A stretch of DNA of 64,000 nt. It comes from an uncultured Candidatus Saccharibacteria bacterium. Lineage in GTDB: Bacteria > Patescibacteriota > Minisyncoccia > Phycocordibacterales > JABMNX01. Each line of letters starts with the position of its first letter. Within the stretch, counting starts at the first letter, position 1. A program made the translations under genes and the position numbers. Of the stretch, positions 27,752 to 62,798 are shown piece by piece. Location: the NCBI GenBank assembly GCA_964575755.1, contig CAZNRH010000001.1, positions 17,100 through 81,099 on the forward strand, given 5' to 3'. The notes beneath the pieces are model-generated. The model was not told the origin of the DNA. It was given only the letters and a program-made list of their open reading frames with translations, and did no database searches.

Positions 27752-30286
27752 ATGATTTTTCTAAAAAAACTGTTTACAGTAGACGAACACAAGAAAGAGC
27801 TCAAAAAGCTTAGTCCTATTGTTGAAAAAATTAATGGACTTGAGGAGTCTTTTAGTGTTCTTTCTGATTCAGATTTAAAAAACAAAACGGAAGAGTTTAA
27901 AAAGCGCCTTATGGAGGGTGAGTCATTAGACGACATACTTCCAGAAGCATTTGCCGCAGTAAGAGAAGCCGCTAAGAGAACACTTGATCAAAGACATTTC
28001 GATGTACAACTTCTTGGGGGTATTACCTTACATAAGGGAAATATTTCAGAAATGAGAACAGGAGAAGGAAAGACTCTTGTAGCAACACTCCCTGCATATT
28101 TGAACGCATTGTCAGGCCTTGGGGTGCATGTAGTTACAGTAAACGACTACCTTTCAAGACGTGACGGCGTTTGGATGGGACAGATTTATACATTTCTAGG
28201 TTTGTCGGTTGGTGTAATAAACCAAGAATCTTCTTTCCTGTATGACAAGACAATCACACAGGATACAAAAGAAGACGAAGAGCGTGACGAATTAGGTTCA
28301 TTTAAAGTCGTGCATGAGTTTTTACGTCCAAGTACAAGGAGAGAGTCATATGAGGCAGACATAACATACGGCACAAACAACGAATTTGGTTTTGATTATC
28401 TTCGCGACAATATCGAATACGAAACAAGTTCACTACGACAACGTGGACACAATTTCGTAGTAGTAGATGAAATAGACTCTATTTTAATAGACGAAGCGCG
28501 GACACCTTTAATCATCTCAGCACCTACAGCAGATCCAGAAAACCTGTATGCAATGTTTGCAGGAATAGTAGCTAATCTTAAAATAGAAGAAGACTTTGTT
28601 GTAGATGAGAAACAAAAGGCTATTTCACTAACAGATACAGGAATAGAAAAAACAGAAAAGATATTAGGTATAGATAATATTTACACAGATAAAGGAGTGA
28701 AGTATGTACACCACCTAGAAACTGCAGTTCGAGCTAAGGCACTATTTGATAAAGATAAAGAATATGTCGTAAAAGACGATGAGGTCGTTATTGTAGATGA
28801 GTTTACAGGGCGGCTTCAGCCAGGACGTCGTTGGTCTGAGGGCCTCCATCAGGCGATAGAAGCAAAAGAAGGCGTGTCAGTTCAAAAAGAATCACGTACA
28901 TTCGCATCTATTACATACCAAAACTATTTCAGACTATACAACAAGCTTGCAGGTATGACAGGTACAGCGCTCACATCTTCAGAAGAGTTTTATAAAGTGT
29001 ACGGTCTTACAGTGGTATCAATACCAACCAATGTAGATCCAAAGAGATTAGACCAAGAAGATCTAATCTATCAGAGTGAAGTAGGAAAGTTTAAAGCAAT
29101 AGCCAAGAAAGTAAAAGAGCTCAACAAAGAAGGTCAACCAGTACTTATAGGTACAGTATCAATAGAGAAAAATGAATTACTCAGTTCTTTTCTTAAAAAA
29201 GAAGGAGTACAGCATAAAACATTAAATGCAAAGAACCACGAAAACGAAGGAGAAATCATCGCGCAGTCAGGAAGTAAGGGTAATGTAACCATAGCCACAA
29301 ACATGGCAGGGCGCGGAGTCGATATCAAACTTGGTGGAAACCCAGGTGGAGAAGAAGAATATGAGGAAGTAAAAAAGCTCGGCGGGCTCTTTGTACTCGG
29401 CACAGAGCGCCATGAAGCACGGCGTATAGACAACCAATTACGTGGACGTTCAGGAAGACAGGGTGACCCAGGAGAAACTCAGTTTTTTGTTTCCCTAGAA
29501 GACTCACTTATGCGAGTGTTCGCTTCAGATATGATTAAGCGTATGATGGGGCGTTTTGGCATACCAGAAGATCAACCAATAGAAAATAAAATGATTACGC
29601 GTTCGCTTGAGTCAGCACAGACAAAGATAGAAGGTTTTCATTTTGATTCACGAAAACACGTACTGCAGTATGACGACATTTTAAATCAACAAAGAACAAT
29701 TATATATAAAAGAAGAAGGGGAATATTACAAGGAGAAAAAAACGATGTATTACTTGCTATAGACAGTGTTATAGGGGGAGATACACACCTACTTAAAACA
29801 GTTGGAGATAAAAAAGAGTTGTTAGGGGAAGACGAGTTTGTTTCTACAGTACGAAGAATGCTGCTGCAAACAATCGATATGCTGTGGGTAGAGCATCTTG
29901 AGATGATGGATTACATGCGTTCAAGTGTAAATCTACGTGCATATGGTCAGCGCGACCCACTTGTAGAATACAAAAAGGAGGGATTGCGTATGTTTAAAGA
30001 GATGGAAGAGTCATACAAACATCAAATCAGAAGCGTATTACCGAATATCGGTGTAAACGCATTCGTAAAAGAAGAACAGAAAATGAAAGAAGTCCACGAT
30101 AGTGCAAAACTAATCAGTAGTAACGTACAAAAGAACGGCCCAACTGATCCTTTAAAGAATACAAATAAAATAGGTAGAAACGACATGGTTACAATTACAG
30201 ACGGTAAAGATACAAAAGAAATGAAGTACAAAAAAGCACAACATCTTATAGAAAGTGGCGAGTGGAGTATAAAAAATGAAGAGTGA
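27752..30286 (+). CDS. secA: Preprotein translocase ATPase SecA
   Basis: MRTGEGKTLVATLPAYLNAL Walker A, DEAD-like helicase motifs, LGGLFVLGTERHEARRIDNQLRGRSGRQGDPG. No C-terminal zinc finger. Confidence 0.95.
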   Translation: MIFLKKLFTVDEHKKELKKLSPIVEKINGLEESFSVLSDSDLKNKTEEFKKRLMEGESLDDILPEAFAAVREAAKRTLDQRHFDVQLLGGITLHKGNISEMRTGEGKTLVATLPAYLNALSGLGVHVVTVNDYLSRRDGVWMGQIYTFLGLSVGVINQESSFLYDKTITQDTKEDEERDELGSFKVVHEFLRPSTRRESYEADITYGTNNEFGFDYLRDNIEYETSSLRQRGHNFVVVDEIDSILIDEARTPLIISAPTADPENLYAMFAGIVANLKIEEDFVVDEKQKAISLTDTGIEKTEKILGIDNIYTDKGVKYVHHLETAVRAKALFDKDKEYVVKDDEVVIVDEFTGRLQPGRRWSEGLHQAIEAKEGVSVQKESRTFASITYQNYFRLYNKLAGMTGTALTSSEEFYKVYGLTVVSIPTNVDPKRLDQEDLIYQSEVGKFKAIAKKVKELNKEGQPVLIGTVSIEKNELLSSFLKKEGVQHKTLNAKNHENEGEIIAQSGSKGNVTIATNMAGRGVDIKLGGNPGGEEEYEEVKKLGGLFVLGTERHEARRIDNQLRGRSGRQGDPGETQFFVSLEDSLMRVFASDMIKRMMGRFGIPEDQPIENKMITRSLESAQTKIEGFHFDSRKHVLQYDDILNQQRTIIYKRRRGILQGEKNDVLLAIDSVIGGDTHLLKTVGDKKELLGEDEFVSTVRRMLLQTIDMLWVEHLEMMDYMRSSVNLRAYGQRDPLVEYKKEGLRMFKEMEESYKHQIRSVLPNIGVNAFVKEEQKMKEVHDSAKLISSNVQKNGPTDPLKNTNKIGRNDMVTITDGKDTKEMKYKKAQHLIESGEWSIKNEE

Positions 30287-30312
30287 ATGTTCGAAGCTAA
30301 GCTTCGAACATT
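30286..30312 (+). repeat. REP-like palindrome aatgttcgaagct-a-agcttcgaacatt
   Basis: Perfect 13-bp arms. Overlaps the last base of the secA stop codon. Confidence 0.6.
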
Positions 30313-30412: not shown

Positions 30413-30435
30413 TGTTCGAAGCTTAGCTTCGAACA
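30413..30435 (+). repeat. REP-like palindrome tgttcgaagct-t-agcttcgaaca (inverted partner of 30286)
   Basis: Same family. Its centre is the reverse complement of the first copy. The pair brackets a 100-nt spacer. Confidence 0.6.
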
Positions 30436-32589: not shown

Positions 32590-33570
32590 ATGAAATTTAT
32601 AGACGAAATAACATTAACAGTAAAAGCAGGAAACGGCGGCAGCGGCGTCGTTAGATGGCTCCAACAAAGAGGAAATCCTCGAGGTGGTCCTGTTGGTGGA
32701 GACGGTGGCAGTGGTGCAGACGTGTACGCGAAAGCAGTACGCGACATAAACATACTTTCCAAATACAGAGGAGATACGGATTTCGTCGCAGAAAACGGAG
32801 GAGACGGTGGCAGGTTAAGTAGACATGGAAAGAACGGAGACACGTTGTACATAAAGTTGCCAATAGGATCAATTATAAAAAATACCGAGACAGGGGAGAC
32901 GTTTGAGTTGCTAGAAGACGGGCAAGAAACGATAATGCTCTCAGGGGGGCGTGGGGGGCTCGGTAACGAGCATTTTAAGAGCTCAGTAAATGTAGTACCA
33001 AAACAAAGCACGAAGGGTAAGCAAGGTGGCTACGCAAAGTTTGAAATAGAGCTATCTTTAATAGCTGATGCAGGTTTTATAGGATTACCAAATGCAGGTA
33101 AATCTAGTCTACTAAACACAATAACCAAAGCAGATGCAAAAGTCGGTAGTTATCAATTCACAACTCTAGACCCAAACCTGGGAGATTTTTACGGGTTTAT
33201 TCTCGCAGACATACCAGGGATAATCGAAGGAGCATCAGAGGGTAAAGGTCTAGGACATAAGTTTCTTAAGCACATAACACGAACGAAAATACTTGTTCAT
33301 TGTATATCACTTGAAAGTGAAGATGTGGTAGAAGACTATCAAACTATTCGTAATGAACTAATTTCATATAACAAAGAGCTCGGAGATAAGAAAGAAATAA
33401 TAATACTCACCAAGAGTGATTTAGTTTCAGATGAAAAATTAAAAAGCGTACAAGACACTCTATCTAAAGAAACACAGAGCAACATCGTCCATATGTCTAT
33501 TCTGGATGACGAGTTAGTTAAAAGTTTTTCAGACACACTCACCTTGTTACTTCAAAAGGGAAGCGAATAA
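32590..33570 (+). CDS. obg: GTPase Obg/CgtA
   Basis: MKFIDEITLTVKAGNGGSGVV Obg fold N-terminus, glycine-rich repeats, G1 ADAGFIGLPNAGKSSLL, G3 DIPG. Confidence 0.95.
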   Translation: MKFIDEITLTVKAGNGGSGVVRWLQQRGNPRGGPVGGDGGSGADVYAKAVRDINILSKYRGDTDFVAENGGDGGRLSRHGKNGDTLYIKLPIGSIIKNTETGETFELLEDGQETIMLSGGRGGLGNEHFKSSVNVVPKQSTKGKQGGYAKFEIELSLIADAGFIGLPNAGKSSLLNTITKADAKVGSYQFTTLDPNLGDFYGFILADIPGIIEGASEGKGLGHKFLKHITRTKILVHCISLESEDVVEDYQTIRNELISYNKELGDKKEIIILTKSDLVSDEKLKSVQDTLSKETQSNIVHMSILDDELVKSFSDTLTLLLQKGSE

Positions 33571-33573
33571 ACC

Positions 33574-33612
33574 CATCATAATGTGCGAAGCTTAGCTTCG
33601 CACATTATGATG
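33574..33612 (+). repeat. 39-nt perfect palindrome catcataatgtgcgaagct-t-agcttcgcacattatgatg
   Basis: 19-bp arms. Starts 4 nt after the obg stop codon. Confidence 0.65.
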
Positions 33613-33638
33613 ATAATTACATGGTAGTATAAATCTAT

Positions 33639-34304
33639 ATGAGGAAGATTATTTTTGCACAAGGTGAATATTACCACCTCTTTTGTCGAGGAAATAACAA
33701 ACAAACCATATTTCGAGATAATCGTGATAAGATACGTTTTTTATTTCTTATTTTAAATTTCCAATCTCCGATGACACATAATAACTTAGGGCGTTATGTC
33801 AATAATTATGTTAAAGATTCAACTTTTAATATAAAAGACGAGGATATTGATACCATGATTGAAGATAGATATGTTGAATTAGTTAGCTTTGCGTTAATGC
33901 CTAATCACTTTCATCTTATTGTTAAAGAAGTCGAAGATAAAGGAGTATCTCAATACATGCATAGAGTATTGACTTCATACACTAAGTATTTTAATGCCAA
34001 ACATGAGCATACAGGACATTTATTTCAAGGCTCATATGGAGCTGTACATGTCAGCGATAATGAACAACTGCTTTATTTGTCAGCATACATACATAGAAAT
34101 CCTCGAGATATAAAAAAGTGGTTTAATAAAGAAAGAGAGTACTACTGGTCAAGCTATCAAGATTATATTAATAAAAATCGTTGGGGTAAATTACTTGAGA
34201 ACAGCATAATAATAGATCAATTTAAAGACGGTAAAGATTACGATGGGGAAGTACAACAAAGCGGAGCAAAAGAATTACTTGATGAGAAACACACAATAAT
34301 TTAA
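33639..34304 (+). CDS. IS200-like / REP-associated tyrosine transposase (RAYT-like, HUH Y1)
   Basis: GEYYHLFCRGNNKQTIF N-terminus, HuH motif MPNHFHLIV, catalytic-Tyr region QLLYLSAYIHRNP. Paralog of 47358-48029. Confidence 0.6.
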   Translation: MRKIIFAQGEYYHLFCRGNNKQTIFRDNRDKIRFLFLILNFQSPMTHNNLGRYVNNYVKDSTFNIKDEDIDTMIEDRYVELVSFALMPNHFHLIVKEVEDKGVSQYMHRVLTSYTKYFNAKHEHTGHLFQGSYGAVHVSDNEQLLYLSAYIHRNPRDIKKWFNKEREYYWSSYQDYINKNRWGKLLENSIIIDQFKDGKDYDGEVQQSGAKELLDEKHTII

Positions 34305-34309
34305 CTATC

Positions 34310-34340
34310 AAAATGTGCGAAGCTTAGCTTCGCACATTTT
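34310..34340 (+). repeat. 31-nt palindrome aaaatgtgcgaagct-t-agcttcgcacatttt
   Basis: Same core as the left palindrome. Starts 6 nt after the transposase stop. Confidence 0.65.
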
Positions 34341-34434
34341 GATCAAAGTACACTTTGTTTTTTGATAGAGGGAATAGAGTCGTAATAGTGAAGTAGTGGA
34401 AGAGGATGGGAGTATTTGTTATAGTATTCCTACA

Positions 34435-47175: not shown

Positions 47176-47311
47176 ACTTCGATTTGGCGCATCTTTGTTG
47201 CGCCAGGCAACATACATTTCTCGTTCAAATATGCGACGTCCAACATCGCATATTTGAACAGAGCGTAACACCTACTCAAGAATAATATTTTGAATATCTC
47301 CAATATAGAAA

Positions 47312-47352
47312 CATCATATCACTTGGAGGTTCGACCTCCAAGTGATATGATG
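47312..47352 (+). repeat. 41-nt palindrome catcatatcacttggaggt-tcg-acctccaagtgatatgatg
   Basis: 19-bp perfect arms. Its outer catcata...tatgatg arms are shared with the 33574 palindrome. Confidence 0.65.
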
Positions 47353-47357
47353 TTTCT

Positions 47358-48029
47358 ATGCGTAAAACACCTTTTATAAACGGAGAGTTTTATCATCTTT
47401 ACAATCGTGGTGTAGACAAAAGAAATACTTTTGAGGACCAAGAAGATGTTAATAGATTTTTTCAAAGTATGGAAGAATTTAATGTAGTCGAGCCAGTGGG
47501 GAGTATTTATGAAAATTCATTCAGAAAAAAGAACAAACTTGGAGGTCGAACCTCCAAGTTAGATAAGTTAGTAGAATTTGTTTGTTATTGTATTAATCCT
47601 AATCATTATCATTTTATAGTGTCGCAAACTAGAGACAACGGCATTAGTGAATTTATGAAAAGACTGTCAGGGGGATATACATATTATTTTAATAATAAAA
47701 ACAAAAGATCAGGATCCCTTTTTCAAGGTACATTTAAATCTGTTCACATAGACTCAAATGAGTACCTACTACATTTAAGTGCTTATGTAAATTTAAATAA
47801 CAAAGTACATAAACTTAATAGTTCATCCTATAAGTTAGTGAGATCAAGTTGGAATGAATATATAGAGAGGAATAAAAAAAGACAAGCTGATTTTTGCGAG
47901 AAAAGTATTGTTTTAGGTCAATTTAAAAACCCCTCAGAATATAAAGTTTTTGCAGAAAATTCTTTGAATGATATTTTATACCACAAGTCTCAGAAGGAAA
48001 TAGGGTCTCTAATTATAGAAAAATTATAA
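47358..48029 (+). CDS. IS200-like / REP-associated tyrosine transposase (RAYT-like, HUH Y1)
   Basis: GEFYHLYNRGVDKRNTF, HuH INPNHYHFIV, catalytic-Tyr region YLLHLSAYVNLN. Paralog of 33639-34304 and of the 5' fragment at 2-376. Confidence 0.6.
   Translation: MRKTPFINGEFYHLYNRGVDKRNTFEDQEDVNRFFQSMEEFNVVEPVGSIYENSFRKKNKLGGRTSKLDKLVEFVCYCINPNHYHFIVSQTRDNGISEFMKRLSGGYTYYFNNKNKRSGSLFQGTFKSVHIDSNEYLLHLSAYVNLNNKVHKLNSSSYKLVRSSWNEYIERNKKRQADFCEKSIVLGQFKNPSEYKVFAENSLNDILYHKSQKEIGSLIIEKL
47536..47560 (+). repeat. REP palindrome aacttggaggt-cga-acctccaagtt inside the transposase ORF (encodes KLGGRTSKL)
   Basis: Same family as the flanking palindromes. Lies in-frame within the CDS at a position where the paralog 33639 has unrelated sequence. 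Confidence 0.6.
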
Positions 48030-48052
48030 TTTTCAAATAAAAATCCAATAGT

Positions 48053-48079
48053 CTACTTGGAGGTTCGACCTCCAAGTAG
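48053..48079 (+). repeat. 27-nt palindrome ctacttggaggt-tcg-acctccaagtag
   Basis: 12-bp arms. Starts 24 nt after the transposase stop. Confidence 0.65.
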
Positions 48080-53765: not shown

Positions 53766-54767
53766 TTATAATTTTGAGACCTCGTAGCCTTCTGGAGCAT
53801 CTTTGAGATACTGCTCTAACTTTTCTTTTGTAACGAGGCCAGCTTGCGCGCCGATGTGTTGCACAACCTGCATAGAATTAATAGGTCCTCTAGTAAGTGC
53901 CTCGGGGAGCGTCATGCCGAGCGCAAGCATTGAAGTTACTGTTGAAGAAAAAGAATCTCCCGCTCCAGTTCTATCAGTTGGTGGAGCTGGGTCTGGATAC
54001 ATTGGCATTTGCCACGTATTGTTTCCGTCATATGCAAATGCTCCACGTGGTCCGTCTGTAATTATGACAGTTTTTGGACCAAGAGCGTGCATCTCCTTCA
54101 TTAATTCTTTAATATCGTCCGAGTCATTTTTAAGTATAGATTGTGCTTCTTGTTTGTTACAGAAGAAAAGTGCAGTAACTTTGTAAATATCTTTCAAAGT
54201 CTCTGCACCAAGTTTAATTTGGAATGTTCCTGGTTGGAAAGCGAGGTTTACCTCAGGGTTATCTTTTATATATTGGGCAATCTCATGATGGTATGGAAGT
54301 GAGTTTTCTCCAACAGAAGAAAAGTACATCCATTTTGGTGGTACTTCAAATTTAGGAAGATTGTATTCATAGTCATGATGTTTGATTAGAATTGTACGCT
54401 CTGCATCATAAAGCAACACATAGTGGTAGTTGGATTTTTTCCCTTTTTCTACTGATACAAATTGAGTGTCAACACCTTCTTTTTTTAGTTGTTCAAGTAT
54501 TTCTTCTCCATTTTTATCGTTCCCCAGATTAGTTACAATAGCTGATTTTAATCCAAGTCTGTGTGCTGAGACTGCTGCATTTGGACTATTTCCAACAGCT
54601 GGCACTACGGTAACTTTTTCGTATGGTAGTTTAGCTCCAAAGTCCATACATAATTTACAGTTATCCTTATCAACATCGCAATTAACACTGGCGTTCTTGA
54701 GTTGTATAAAAGCGTCAGTAACAATGTCACCAACAGCTACAAAATCTAATTGTTCCATATGCTTCAT
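53766..54767 (-). CDS. PfkB-family carbohydrate kinase (ribokinase/fructokinase-like)
   Basis: DFVAVGDIVTDAF N-terminal motif. PfkB signature-2 DRTGAGDSFSSTV. Confidence 0.7.
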   Translation of the reverse strand: MKHMEQLDFVAVGDIVTDAFIQLKNASVNCDVDKDNCKLCMDFGAKLPYEKVTVVPAVGNSPNAAVSAHRLGLKSAIVTNLGNDKNGEEILEQLKKEGVDTQFVSVEKGKKSNYHYVLLYDAERTILIKHHDYEYNLPKFEVPPKWMYFSSVGENSLPYHHEIAQYIKDNPEVNLAFQPGTFQIKLGAETLKDIYKVTALFFCNKQEAQSILKNDSDDIKELMKEMHALGPKTVIITDGPRGAFAYDGNNTWQMPMYPDPAPPTDRTGAGDSFSSTVTSMLALGMTLPEALTRGPINSMQVVQHIGAQAGLVTKEKLEQYLKDAPEGYEVSKL

Positions 54768-55206: not shown

Positions 55207-56070
55207 ATGAAATCACTACGAGAGTATGTAGCAGAAGCTGAGGTAAATAAGGTTGCAATTGGGCACTTTAATATTTCTGATACTGAGCAATTACATGCGA
55301 TTTTTAATACAGCTAAAAAGCTTAATCTGCCCATTATAATAGGTACATCAGAAGGAGAGCGTGATTTCGTAGGGGTTAAACAAGCGGTAGCTCTTGTAAA
55401 AAGTCTTCGTGAGGAACACAACTACCCTATTTTCTTAAATGCAGACCACACTTATTCACTAGAGAGAGTGAAAGAAGTCGTAGACGCAGGGTATGATGCT
55501 GTTATTTTCGACGGCACCAAGCTCCCCTTTGAAGAAAATATTGCAGAAACTAAGAAAGCGGTCGAGTATGCACGGAGTGTCGATGCAAACATTATTGTAG
55601 AGGGAGAGATAGGGTACATTGGCACATCTTCAAAAGTACTTGATGAATTACCTAAGGGTGTTGATCCAGAAGGCGCTGTAACAACTGAAGAGGAGGTATC
55701 AAGGTATGTTAAAGAAACAGGAGTTGATTTAGCTGCACCTGCAGTAGGCAATCTGCATGGCATGCTTAAGGGAGGCAAAAATCCAATGTTAAACATAGAA
55801 CAAATCGTTAAGTTAAGAAAAGCTGGTGGCGTACCAATAGTACTTCATGGAGGTTCCGGTATTTCTGACGAAGACTTTAGGTCTGCAATAGAGGCTGGAG
55901 TTTCGACCATACATATCAATACAGAAATCCGCATTGCATACCGAGAAGGAATAGAAGAAGCACTTAAAGAAAACCCTGATGAAATAGCACCATACAGGTT
56001 TATGAAAAAAGGGGCTGAGAATGTCGCTAAGGTAGTTGAGAAACGACTACGTCTATTCAATAATATTTAA
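55207..56070 (+). CDS. fba: Class II fructose-1,6-bisphosphate aldolase
   Basis: KVAIGHFNISD, LHGGSGISDEDF and STIHINTE are class II aldolase motifs. Confidence 0.85.
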   Translation: MKSLREYVAEAEVNKVAIGHFNISDTEQLHAIFNTAKKLNLPIIIGTSEGERDFVGVKQAVALVKSLREEHNYPIFLNADHTYSLERVKEVVDAGYDAVIFDGTKLPFEENIAETKKAVEYARSVDANIIVEGEIGYIGTSSKVLDELPKGVDPEGAVTTEEEVSRYVKETGVDLAAPAVGNLHGMLKGGKNPMLNIEQIVKLRKAGGVPIVLHGGSGISDEDFRSAIEAGVSTIHINTEIRIAYREGIEEALKENPDEIAPYRFMKKGAENVAKVVEKRLRLFNNI

Positions 56071-56150
56071 ATCAGGTTAATAATCTTTAAACCAAGTTAA
56101 TAATCTATAAATAAGTTACGAATTGGGTAAGACTACATCTCATATAAAAC

Positions 56151-56168
56151 CTTACGATATATCGTAAG
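56151..56168. repeat. Palindrome cttacgatatatcgtaag (copy 1 of 3)
   Basis: Perfect 18-nt palindrome preceded by aaac. Confidence 0.6.
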
Positions 56169-56214
56169 AAATCAAAGAAAAAAATAACCAAAGAAAAAAA
56201 TAACAGCAAAAACA

Positions 56215-56240
56215 AAACCTCACGATATATCGTAAGGTTT
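56215..56240. repeat. Palindrome aaacctcacgatatatcgtaaggttt (copy 2); probable bidirectional terminator
   Basis: One mismatch in the arms. Lies 7 nt beyond the stop of the minus-strand gene. T-runs on both strands. Confidence 0.6.
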
Positions 56241-56246
56241 TGGAAT

Positions 56247-56648
56247 TTACAATTCGTCAATAAACTTTTTAAAGGATTTTTTCTTGCCAGTGAAAGCTAG
56301 AGCGACAATAGATTCAAGAAGAGCATCTAAAGACCCTTCTTTGCTATTCTTCCAAACCCAATCTGTAGTGTGTTTGTATTTACCAAACTCAACAGCTAAC
56401 GAGAAACGTTTAGCAGTTGAAGGACTTACTCCTAATAATTCACTTATTTTATATAAAGAAACTCCTTTTCTTATAAGAAGTAACATCCCAATACGTTTAG
56501 CAAGCATTATAGTTTCTGTTTCGGTTAATAATTCCTCAAGAACCAGAGCACGTTTTTTAGATCCAGTATCTCTAAGTAATGTGTAAAAATGTTTTTCTAG
56601 ACCCTTCTTTATATCGGCATCGAGTTTCTTTTGTGAAATATGTGGCAT
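56247..56648 (-). CDS. Small HTH DNA-binding protein (TrpR-like YerC/YecD-type), putative
   Basis: 133 aa. LYKISELLGVSPSTAKRFS is an HTH-like segment. It is the only minus-strand gene here, flanked on both sides by the same palindrome. Confidence 0.4.
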   Translation of the reverse strand: MPHISQKKLDADIKKGLEKHFYTLLRDTGSKKRALVLEELLTETETIMLAKRIGMLLLIRKGVSLYKISELLGVSPSTAKRFSLAVEFGKYKHTTDWVWKNSKEGSLDALLESIVALAFTGKKKSFKKFIDEL

Positions 56649-56652
56649 ATAT

Positions 56653-56678
56653 AAACCTTACGATATATCGTAAGGTTT
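56653..56678. repeat. Palindrome aaaccttacgatatatcgtaaggttt (copy 3), in the 5' region of the minus-strand HTH gene
   Basis: Perfect 26-nt palindrome 5 nt upstream of the start codon. Followed by the same ggttttggaat tail as copy 2. Confidence 0.6.
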
Positions 56679-58447: not shown

Positions 58448-58475
58448 TCTAAATTAAAAAGAATAATCTCAATAT

Positions 58476-58505
58476 AAAAATACTCCAGTATACTGGAGTA
58501 TTTTT
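58476..58505 (+). terminator. Rho-independent terminator (tactccagta-tactggagta + T5)
   Basis: 10-bp perfect stem followed by ttttt, 29 nt after the rplY stop. Confidence 0.65.
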
Positions 58506-58601
58506 ATATTGTTGAGTGGATAGTATGGTTAATAATTTTACAAAAGTTTTACCACTACGTATTTCGACAAATGTACTATATTGGTATAATAACTATTAAT
58601 C

Positions 58602-60880: not shown

Positions 60881-61858
60881 ATGGATAAAGAAACACTAAA
60901 AAACTACCGTGAAAACCACAAGACGGCTTTTCTGGTGGAACAATATGACAAGCTAGTAAAGCAAGAAGAAGAGACAAAAGAGATGTCAAAAGATCCTGAG
61001 GTTATGGAGTTAGCGACTGATGAGCTTAATGCAATAAAAGTGCAACAAGACGAGCTTGTTAAACAAATGGAGCTTATAACAAAATCAGATGAGGAAGAAG
61101 AGAAGTTTCCAAATGAATTAATTCTTGAGGTGCGTGCAGGGGCAGGAGGCGAAGAAGCCGCCATCTTTGCTGAACAATTGGCATTTATGTATGAGAGATA
61201 TTCAGAGAAGCAGGGGTGGCAGTACAGGGTAATAAATGAATCAAAGAGCTCTCTTGGTGGATACAAAGAGGTGGTGGTTGAAATTCGCGGTAAAGATTCT
61301 TATAAAAAACTTAGACACGAGACAGGGGTGCATCGAGTACAACGTATCCCATCGACTGAAAAACAAGGTCGTATACACACCTCAACTGCTTCAGTAGCCA
61401 TATTACCTATTCGTAAGAAGGCAAAAGTTGAACTTAATCCCGCTGACCTAGAAATTGAGTTTTCTCGTTCTGGTGGAGCGGGTGGGCAAAATGTGAATAA
61501 GGTCGAGACAGCTGTTAGGGTTATACATAAGCCCACTAGTATTGATGTCCGTAGCACATCAGAGAGAAGTCAACAGAAAAACCGCGAGCAAGCAATGAGT
61601 ATACTACAAGCGAAATTACAACTCTTAGCAGAAGAAGAGCAAGCTCAGAAAATAGCAAAAGAGCGTAAAGAGCAAGTAAAAACAGCAGATCGCTCAGAAA
61701 AGATAAGGACGTATAACTTCTCGCAAGACCGTATAACCGACCACAGAATAAAGAAATCTTGGTCGAATATAGTTGGTGTTATGGGAGGTGAGCTTAATGA
61801 CATAATTGAGTCATTTGACGATTATGATACCTCGCAAGGTATCATGTCCACAGACTAA
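60881..61858 (+). CDS. prfA: Peptide chain release factor 1
   Basis: GGQ motif ([18 protein letters not shown]). P(S/A)T tripeptide region [14 protein letters not shown] is typical of RF1. No RF2-type frameshift site. Confidence 0.8.
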
Positions 61859-61991
61859 GCAAAAATCGCGTCTGATATTTCGCAAAATATCATGTCCACA
61901 GACCGGAGACGTGTTAAAAGATACGTAAGACTATGATACTATACATATTGCGAAAGTACCCTTTATTTGCTAGACTCTTCAAGTATTAACT

Positions 61992-62798
61992 ATGGAAGAA
62001 ACAAAAACTAAAACAACAACAGGAGATATAATCGGTTCAATGTTTGAAGTTGGTGCTCATTTTGCGTACAGCAAATCCCGTCGACATCCGACGGTAAGTT
62101 CGTATATATTTGGGACAAAGGACAAGGTAGAGATTTTTGACCTAGAAAAGACAAAAGGTCTCCTTGATAATGCCCTAGAGTTTGTTGAGAAGCTTTCAAA
62201 AGAGGGTAAAACTGTACTATTTGTAGCTGGCAAGAACGAGGCTCGTAATATAATAAAAAGCACAGCTCTTTCTCTAGATATGCCTTATGTAACTGGACGA
62301 TGGATTGGCGGGACTCTTACTAATTTCGAACAAATCAAAAAACAAATATTACGTCTTGAAGAATTAACCTCTGAAAAAGAAAAAGGCGAGCTAGCAAAGA
62401 AATACAATAAAAAGGAGTTAGTCATGCTTAATCGCGAAATGGAATCTCTAGAGAATATATTTGGCGGACTTATTTCAATGAAATCATTGCCGTCTGCACT
62501 TATTGTTATAGACACCAAGCGTGAATACATCGCAGTGGAAGAAGCAAAAAAGAAGGGGATACCAGTTATTGCATTAATGAACTCAGACTGCAGTCTCTTG
62601 AGTGCGGATTATCCAATTTTGGCAAACGACGCTTCAATGAAGAGCATTGTATTTTTTGTTAATCTAATCTCAGATACATACAAAAAGAATAAATTTGCTG
62701 GTAAGGCTGTTGATGACGATTCCTCGCAAGGAATCGCGTCCGAAGACGTTAAACAAAAGACCATAGAACTCAAGGAGTCAGGGAGTGTATCGAAATAG
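61992..62798 (+). CDS. rpsB: 30S ribosomal protein S2, with a C-terminal extension
   Basis: S2 core (FEVGAHFAYSKSRRHP, VLFVAGK). The C-terminal DDDSSQGIASEDVKQ is encoded by the repeated 45-nt element. Confidence 0.85.
   Translation: MEETKTKTTTGDIIGSMFEVGAHFAYSKSRRHPTVSSYIFGTKDKVEIFDLEKTKGLLDNALEFVEKLSKEGKTVLFVAGKNEARNIIKSTALSLDMPYVTGRWIGGTLTNFEQIKKQILRLEELTSEKEKGELAKKYNKKELVMLNREMESLENIFGGLISMKSLPSALIVIDTKREYIAVEEAKKKGIPVIALMNSDCSLLSADYPILANDASMKSIVFFVNLISDTYKKNKFAGKAVDDDSSQGIASEDVKQKTIELKESGSVSK
62712..62756 (+). repeat. 45-nt element gatgacgattcctcgcaaggaatcgcgtccgaagacgttaaacaa inside the rpsB 3' end
   Basis: Near-identical to 58385-58429 in rplY. A third, partial copy lies at 311-334 in the RAYT fragment. 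Confidence 0.75.

Follow-up and report, generated by a model that had tools for sequence, protein, structure and literature searches.

The locus described here raises the question of what a palindrome repeated on both sides of a small helix-turn-helix (HTH) gene is for, and whether it serves the gene as an operator, as a terminator, or as the border of a cassette. The gene lies in a 64,000-nt stretch of DNA, referred to below as the window, where it occupies positions 56247–56648 on the minus strand and encodes a protein of 133 aa starting MPHIS, with a Lys-rich N-terminal arm. A class II fructose-bisphosphate aldolase gene (fba) is convergent to it, and a D-2-hydroxyacid/glycerate dehydrogenase gene (HADH) is divergent from it. 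An earlier note on this DNA had called it the only minus-strand gene, which is correct for about 55–64 kb, but the pfkB kinase gene at 53766–54767 is also encoded on that strand.

The HTH gene and its palindromes

A pattern search allowing up to three mismatches recovered three copies of AAACCTTACGATATATCGTAAGGTTT around the gene, with 0, 1, and 3 mismatches, and no fourth match in the 64-kb window, which bears out the bracketing by three copies that had been described from the letters alone. No match was found in 100 dinucleotide shuffles. The upstream copy (56653–56678), the predicted operator, is a perfect 26-nt zero-loop palindrome whose dyad falls between 56665 and 56666, at a distance of 17.5 nt from the A of the start codon. 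The downstream copy matches AAACCTTACGATATATCGTAAGGTTT at 56215–56240 with a single mismatch (C at 56221) and is part of a 30-nt palindrome at 56213–56242 with one C.A mismatch, which becomes a G.U pair on the strand of the gene. The third, partial copy (match at 56147–56172, element at 56146–56172) has three mismatches, is perfectly palindromic only over the 18 nt at 56151–56168, and reads on the minus strand as a weak, terminator-like hairpin. The distances given previously needed small corrections: the upstream copy is 4 nt rather than 5 nt from the ATG, the downstream copy starts 6 nt rather than 7 nt past the stop, and the third copy lies 68 nt from the second, start to start, rather than 65 nt further on. 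An A-rich spacer, 42 nt long between the two matches and running from 56173 to 56212 up to the downstream palindrome span, holds a 16-nt tandem duplication (AATCAAAGAAAAAAAT / AACCAAAGAAAAAAAT). Repeat analysis showed that the two full copies share a direct repeat of 32 nt, tail GGTTTTGGAAT included, in agreement with the shared ggttttggaat tail noticed before; in the ortholog L194, the downstream copy does not have this tail. The palindromes have no match in Rfam.

The protein had been read as TrpR/YerC-like, and this assignment survives in part: weak TrpR and HTH_23 matches were confirmed, but they remain under the Pfam and NCBIfam cut-offs. The Trp_repressor domain PF01371 reaches 21.3 bits (cut-off 27), the YerC/YecD model TIGR02531 reaches 13.2 (cut-off 42.2), and the HTH_23 match in Pfam is likewise sub-threshold; many homologs of the protein have precomputed PF01371 matches. 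A profile built from 18 homologs finds PDB entry 3kor, a YerC-like “possible Trp repressor”, with E=3.3e-5, along with 3frw and 3g1c. In an hhalign comparison, residues 32–89 align with residues 34–92 of E. coli TrpR, so that LTETE is paired with LTPDE and LGVSPSTAKRF with LGAGIATITRG of TrpR. The AlphaFold (AF2) monomer model, with a pLDDT of 77, contains eight helices, in which helices 65–72 and 76–87 form the HTH and two further C-terminal helices fall outside the TrpR core. Foldseek ranks 1–9 are all TrpR-like, although these hits are weak (E>1, TM to target about 0.6); TrpR forms an intertwined dimer, an arrangement beyond the reach of a monomer model. Pfam gave no Y1_Tnp match for the protein, and no catalytic domain was seen. 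The 133-aa protein is best read as a distant HTH protein of the TrpR/YerC(HisR) type with two extra C-terminal helices.

The hhalign comparison also aligns T42, R52, and R81 of the protein to T44, R54, and R84 of TrpR, residues that line the tryptophan (corepressor) pocket. Since all three are invariant in an alignment of 18 sequences (A1), a small-molecule corepressor is possible, and the protein may be under the control of such a ligand.

Pairing of protein and palindrome across related genomes

Homologs of the protein form 817 clusters at 50% identity (E<=1e-10), all about 130–145 aa in length. Where named, they are annotated from Paceibacteria/Parcubacteria metagenome-assembled genomes (MAGs), and the family appears to be restricted to Paceibacteria and the candidate phyla radiation (CPR). 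Viral contigs contained no family member and only 2 palindrome matches, and no PHROG matched the family; a phage or plasmid origin was rejected on these grounds. We found no description of the HTH family or of the palindrome sequence in the literature. The gene-plus-palindrome unit recurs over hundreds of related genomes, and its regulator family is previously undescribed.

In order to assess how regularly the palindrome accompanies the gene, we scored 79 loci (the window and 78 loci of GTDB species representatives, at 30–80% protein identity) for zero-loop palindromes with arms of at least 8 nt just before the ATG or just past the stop. Palindromes flank the gene on both sides at 52/79 loci, upstream only at 6/79, and downstream only at 10/79; the 11/79 loci scored as having none nonetheless carry a quasi-palindrome upstream. 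Palindrome density beside the gene is 1.76/kb against 0.16/kb in the 3-kb flanks, about a tenfold difference. The upstream dyad has its mode at -17.5 from the ATG, where it is located in the window, at 10 further loci, and also in L190 and L194; additional loci deviate by +/-1. For the downstream dyad the mode is 16.5 nt beyond the stop. In almost all loci the centre of the palindrome is TATA, around which the sites fall into discrete core types (CGATATATCG, TGATATATCA, CAATATATTG, TCATATATGA, and CAGTATACTG). Several genomes encode pairs of paralogs that have different palindromes (L001/L003, L006/L012, L041/L056, L024/L037, and L049/L078).

These core types follow the first two residues of the recognition helix. 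The CGA (CGATA) core occurs with S77 at 32/32 loci, the TGA (TGATA) core with Q77 at 10/11, and the CAA (CAATA) core with T77 at 5/6. Among CGA sites, an A at half-site position 6 is matched by P76 in 21/22 cases, and any other base (G, T, or C) by S, A, T, or I at residue 76 in 10/10. On a tree built without the recognition-helix columns, lineages lacking P76 are scattered among those that have it, corresponding to about 7–8 independent switches. By hhalign, residues 76 and 77 align to I79 and A80 of TrpR, two residues that reach into the major groove when TrpR is bound to its operator. A plain mutual-information analysis of alignment columns versus site positions was dominated by subfamily structure and was therefore dropped; contingency tables restricted to a single core type and tree-ordered contrasts took its place. 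Phylogeny partly confounds the covariation, as position 4 correlates with many columns of the alignment. Because helix residues and core covary, we take the palindrome to be the operator of the protein, and the pairing is strong comparative evidence for a cognate site that would be bound as duplex DNA. The suggestion in the earlier note that the palindrome is an operator used in autoregulation thus gains support from the palindrome at the start site, from its dyad at -17.5, from the usual second copy past the stop over the 79 loci, and from the covariation of the core with residues 76 and 77.

The position of the upstream copy also points to how the gene might be controlled. At loci with the dyad at -17.5, half-site positions 6–11 coincide with -12 to -7, and the hexamer there fits TAnnnT in 9/10: TAAGGT in the window, predicted as the -10 hexamer at 56655–56660 on the minus strand inside the right half-site, and TATGAT, TATACT, or TATAGT elsewhere. 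TAnnnT has its positional peak at -12 among family loci. A second candidate, TATCGT, is located in the palindrome core at -17, and either hexamer fits. A sigma-70 -35/-10 promoter was rejected for this gene, as a consensus scan found none and there is no clear -35 element. SD-like motifs were detected for only 4/79 family genes and 2/48 genes of the window, many of which have a -10-like box 7–12 nt ahead of their ATG. The mRNA is probably leaderless, in which case it would start at the ATG, or has a very short leader. An operator lying over the probable -10 box and leaderless start is the classical layout of autorepression, which the overlap implies, and binding at this site would be expected to repress the gene.

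Terminator-like copies and a variable slot

The copies away from the start codon also look like terminators. On the minus strand, a terminator scan reads the downstream copy as a 13-pair hairpin followed by TTTTTGCTGT and scores the third copy as weaker. The 56 nt between 56200 and 56255 fold, as minus-strand RNA, with -20.3 kcal/mol (z=-7.5), and the succession of A-tract, stem, and T-tract is like that of a bidirectional intrinsic terminator.

A metagenome scan for CCTTRCGATATATCGYAAGG returned 103 stretches. Among the 80 loci listed, 26/94 sites are within 150 nt of a family gene, and after deduplication 60/83 sites among the loci listed are orphans that do not adjoin one. Since most copies lie away from family genes, autoregulation alone is insufficient to explain the element. 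The 60 orphan sites include 18 in convergent, 2 in divergent, and 17 in tandem settings; the distance to an adjacent gene is mostly that to its end, often 13–60 nt from the dyad, and in 42/60 orphans the core is preceded by an A-tract and followed by a T-tract. Their number is low, about 4–5 per gene locus. Although the outer arms differ between sites, their palindromy is perfect, up to 27 nt, which a 20-bp operator does not account for. One MAG has the gene with its site type on contig L001, while a second contig of that MAG, L003, carries an orphan of this type. The genes next to the 60 sites are unrelated housekeeping genes (for example TsaD, GatB, RecR, L21, and RF2) without a common function, so a metabolic regulon is unsupported and a pathway regulon was rejected.

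Located mostly at unrelated 3′ ends and in most cases framed by A and T tracts, the orphans resemble bidirectional terminators, as does the downstream copy, and transcription would be expected to end at both. The terminator role proposed from the window alone is supported in this respect, with downstream copies that score as intrinsic terminators and fold strongly. It had further been argued that an association of the palindrome with many unrelated terminators across the genome, and none with the gene, would speak for a generic element. Many unrelated terminator-like sites do occur in related genomes, but none was found elsewhere in the window, and the tie to the gene family is specific and strong. 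The window does contain an orphan of another specificity type at 58470–58511, past the L25 stop and ahead of the next gene, with a CTCCAGTATACTGGAG core and 21-nt arms. Over the central 22 nt it matches the operator of the family member in L048 exactly, its RNA folds with -24.8 kcal/mol, and no cognate paralog is encoded within the window.

In related genomes the HTH gene sits in a slot of a conserved block, pfkB-fba-(slot)-HADH-L25-SLT. The slot is empty in L191 (HADH 89% identical to that of the window), L187 (88%), L192 and L193 (86%), and L189 (80%), where fba and HADH are 4–33 nt apart and no palindrome is left. It is occupied on the minus strand in the window, L188 (HADH 84%), L001/L110 (80%), and L194 (78%). 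In L190 (78%) the module is inverted onto the plus strand, with four upstream copies and one downstream, and it keeps its dyad at -17.5 and a -10 box of TATACT. The slot of L188 has a different site type and an HTH protein just 60% identical to that of the window. In a tree of fba and HADH, the empty L191 is the sister of the window (fba 92% identical) and the occupied L001 and L194 are basal, a placement that implies either several clean losses or an exchange of presence and absence alleles via the conserved flanks. Individual palindromes turn over as well: L191 carries an orphan of the window type behind pfkB, a position taken by an ordinary hairpin in the window, and at the L25 terminator the window, L191, and L195 have different, unrelated palindromes. 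Synteny is stable in other subfamilies, such as ThrRS-HTH-GyrB in 13 loci.

A module that is present, absent, or inverted within a fixed gene order is cassette-like, and the synteny of fba and the dehydrogenase in relatives, with a slot that can be filled, lost without trace, or reversed, thereby backs the inserted cassette that had been offered as an alternative to autoregulation. No recombinase or transposase gene adjoins the module, whose neighbors are housekeeping genes. A cassette with oriented ends was rejected, as comparing the flanks of the upstream copies with those of the downstream copies gave no greater similarity in direct than in inverted orientation (p=0.48), and the TGGAAT tail is missing from the downstream copy of L194. 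Target-site duplication of the fba 3′ end was also rejected: the only exact match is 9 nt long, AT-rich, and near chance by a rough estimate, and similar duplications are found in the empty site of L192. Elsewhere in the window, two IS200-like Y1_Tnp genes (33639–34304 and 47358–48029) are bracketed by palindromes of their own, with orphan copies. In L124, an HTH module lies between Obg and GatB, the position of one of these Y1 transposase genes in the window.

Proposed model and its alternatives

We propose that the gene encodes a dimeric HTH protein of the TrpR family, whose cognate site would be the TATA-centered palindrome of 20–26 bp. Bound at the upstream copy, the dimer would shut off its own promoter, the gene-proximal half-site holding the -10 box. 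The second copy past the stop, together with the partial third copy, would form a bidirectional intrinsic terminator serving both the gene and the convergent fba, and the downstream copy may also serve as a second operator. Having operators and terminators at both ends, the unit would be self-contained, insulated, and self-regulated. The same architecture would apply family-wide in Paceibacteria, often with several paralogs per genome that each have a palindrome type of their own, and with a few terminator-like orphan palindromes per genome, mostly 3′ of unrelated genes. At these orphans the protein might act as a roadblock, control read-through, or do nothing. Over evolution the unit would behave as an accessory cassette, gained, lost, and inverted as a block within conserved synteny. 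Comparative evidence from sequences supports the proposal through the pairing of protein and site, the conserved spacing, the distribution of orphans, and the presence, absence, and inversion of the module. We assign the model as a whole a probability of roughly 0.65.

A serious rival is suggested by the two Y1 transposase genes of the window, which share the bracketed layout and have orphans. As in REP/RAYT systems, the palindromes could be dispersed mobile elements that colonize terminator positions, with the HTH protein a cognate and possibly selfish partner that recruits or controls their copying or recombination, and with autoregulation a side effect. Consistent with such mobility are the several orphans per gene locus in unrelated contexts, their site-specific yet perfectly palindromic outer arms, the turnover of palindromes at orthologous terminators (after pfkB in L191, and at L25 in the window, L191, and L195), the module that comes and goes or turns around in a fixed block, and its occurrence in L124 at the Obg-GatB position taken by a transposase gene in the window. 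However, the HTH protein has no catalytic domain, the copy number is low, the flanks show neither a target-site duplication nor a bias between direct and inverted orientation, viral contigs have no family member, and some subfamilies have long-stable synteny (ThrRS-HTH-GyrB, 13 loci). Homologous exchange via conserved flanks could also produce the patchy distribution, and we regard this explanation as unlikely.

Two further readings, both disfavored, would detach the palindrome from duplex-DNA recognition. The protein might instead bind palindrome hairpins in RNA, those at both ends of its own mRNA as well as those at the 3′ ends of other mRNAs, and so control termination, read-through, or stability. 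The hairpins are stable, with a UAUA loop, and stand at 3′ ends with U-tracts; the conserved core would then correspond to the loop and the top of the stem, and the single mismatch of the downstream copy in the window is compatible with G.U pairing on the strand of the gene. Against this, the relatives TrpR and HisR/YerC bind duplex DNA, the dyads are exact and zero-loop, the dyad rather than the base of the stem is fixed relative to the ATG, and the covarying residues are equivalent to TrpR residues of the major groove. G.U-compatible mismatches are distributed without strand bias (33 sense versus 38 antisense), which led us to reject RNA-level selection on one strand, and RNA binding seems to us very improbable. 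Still harder to sustain is the idea that these are ordinary bidirectional terminators or REPs unlinked to the HTH gene, bracketing it by coincidence or shared descent. Orphans at many unrelated 3′ ends are what it would predict, but the bracketing and the -17.5 spacing are kept over 79 loci at 30–80% protein identity, and the core types match recognition-helix residues through repeated independent switches, a covariation by which this idea is already contradicted. Conservation is also highest in the center, the part in which an ordinary terminator could vary freely, and in the window the upstream copy, 4 nt from the ATG and facing a divergent neighbor, would have no role as a terminator.

If the model of a self-regulated TrpR-family unit holds, it would give the CPR a large family of regulators with sequence-defined operators, a readable code (residues 76/77 versus half-site positions 4–6), and a predicted leaderless promoter layout. 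To our knowledge, almost nothing is known of gene regulation in CPR/Patescibacteria, which are not culturable alone and encode few transcription factors. A subset of the terminators in these genomes would carry a protein-recognition sequence, and a regulator exchanged together with its sites as a cassette would bear on how transcription units are insulated and controlled in streamlined genomes and on the origin of REP-like elements. A bolder and tentative extension, which we consider possible but doubtful, is that the palindromes are protein-addressed terminators specific to the CPR: either dispersed, evolutionarily mobile palindromes working as bidirectional terminators, of which each type is read by the HTH paralog encoded between two copies, an HTH counterpart of REP/RAYT, or ligand-switchable terminators and roadblocks for modular control of read-through. 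If true, ligand-switchable terminators would offer such control cheaply in tiny genomes.

Comparison with known systems

Small dimeric DNA-binding proteins that act at about 5–10 chromosomal sites, some of them next to their own gene and autoregulating it, are known from RTP/Ter of B. subtilis and from ParB/parS. Both differ from the family described here in fold, and here the sites are symmetric (non-polar), with nothing to tie them to replication or segregation. With intrinsic (Rho-independent) bidirectional terminators, the palindromes share an A-tract, a stem-loop, and a T-tract after convergent or tandem genes; unlike in those, the stem-loop sequence is conserved in discrete types and one copy is located at the promoter and start of the family gene. 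As in REP/RAYT systems with their IS200-like Y1 proteins, a single-copy gene lies between cognate palindromes, more copies occupy extragenic 3′ regions, and several gene/palindrome pairs may occur in one genome. The HTH protein, in contrast, has no HUH/Y1 domain, the dyads are perfect and zero-loop, and there are few copies per genome.

The closest likeness is to TrpR, which represses its own gene, and to HisR (YerC of B. subtilis, from Firmicutes), with which the protein shares a predicted all-helical HTH, an LTxxE motif, and a recognition helix of the form G-x-S/G-x-x-T-x-x-R. Members of the TrpR family, including HisR, recognize 20-bp palindromic operators (PMC9413887), and the sites described here are likewise palindromes of roughly 20 bp with an AT-rich center. 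TrpR and HisR are both shorter than 110 aa, whereas the protein of the window has 133 aa, an MPHIS N-terminus, and two added C-terminal helices. In addition, the family differs from both in having a predicted operator at both ends of the gene and several paralogs of distinct specificity per genome, and its sites are terminator-like, mostly following unrelated genes at their 3′ ends and not gathered at the promoters of one pathway. Relative to a plain TrpR-type autoregulator, the apparent novelty would lie in a predicted operator at each end of the gene, in operators that would double as dispersed terminators, and in the cassette-like behavior of the unit.

Palindromes of the HTH family and other palindrome types

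A perfect 42-nt palindrome (core CTCCAGTATACTGGAG) lies 3′ of the L25 gene at window positions 58470-58511, and its type is identical to that of the predicted operators on either side of the HTH family member in L048, a related locus, implying that a second paralog is encoded elsewhere in the window's genome. In L190, the related locus in which the HTH module is inverted, three tandem 51-nt repeats (1650-1895) upstream of the family gene each contain one predicted operator copy (TCATACGATATATCGTATGA), and jointly constitute a predicted operator array. Related genomes also contain further families of long zero-loop palindromes, found in L001 (5366-5401), L003 (2766-2793, 3843-3870, and 3969-4012), and L191 (4409-4450), with the sequences TTTGCGAC..GTCGCAAA; CCCAGCACCTAACGCGTTAGGTGCTGGG (two copies); and GCACTTCGACTAGTCGAAGTGC. 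These palindromes may represent REP families or the binding sites of different proteins.

RAYT-like genes and intergenic slots

Two window genes (33639-34304 and 47358-48029) match the Pfam domain Y1_Tnp and encode IS200-like Y1 transposases resembling REP-associated tyrosine transposases (RAYT-like). Each has a separate long palindrome on both sides of the gene, with core CGAAGCTTAGCTTCG for the first (bracketed unit 33574-34343) and CTTGGAGGTTCGACCTCCAAG for the second (47305-48079), and orphan copies of the first type are found 3′ of a secA-like gene (30286-30312 and 30413-30435). The Obg-GatB intergenic slot holds the first RAYT-like gene and its own palindromes in the window (33570-34396), whereas in the related locus L124 it holds the HTH module (510-992). 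This slot may be an insertion hot spot common to both, and the coincidence is not significant by a rough estimate (p ~0.1).

The intergenic slot that holds a family gene in the related locus L002 is occupied in the window (61822-61995) by two tandem ~30-nt units, GATAcctCGCAAggTATCATGTCCACAGAC and GATAtttCGCAAaaTATCATGTCCACAGAC. These units fold into hairpins whose stems differ by compensatory changes, and a conserved tail comes after the hairpins. Directly 3′ of the fba stop codon lies a tandem repeat of the gene's final ~20 nt (AATAATATTTAAATCAGGTT; 56059-56100); a similar duplication is present in the related locus L194 and in L192, where the fba-dehydrogenase slot lacks the module. In three metagenome loci (L081, L101, and L128), a more distant family member likewise adjoins a homolog of the window's 2-hydroxyacid dehydrogenase (31% identity), here in tandem orientation; the repeated pairing may reflect chance or recurrent association.

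Translation starts across the window

Among 48 long ORFs spanning the whole window, Shine-Dalgarno-like motifs are nearly missing (2/48 genes), and many genes have a TATAAT-like box 7–17 nt upstream of the ATG. Together these sequence features suggest that leaderless or very short-leader mRNAs are widespread among the window's genes.
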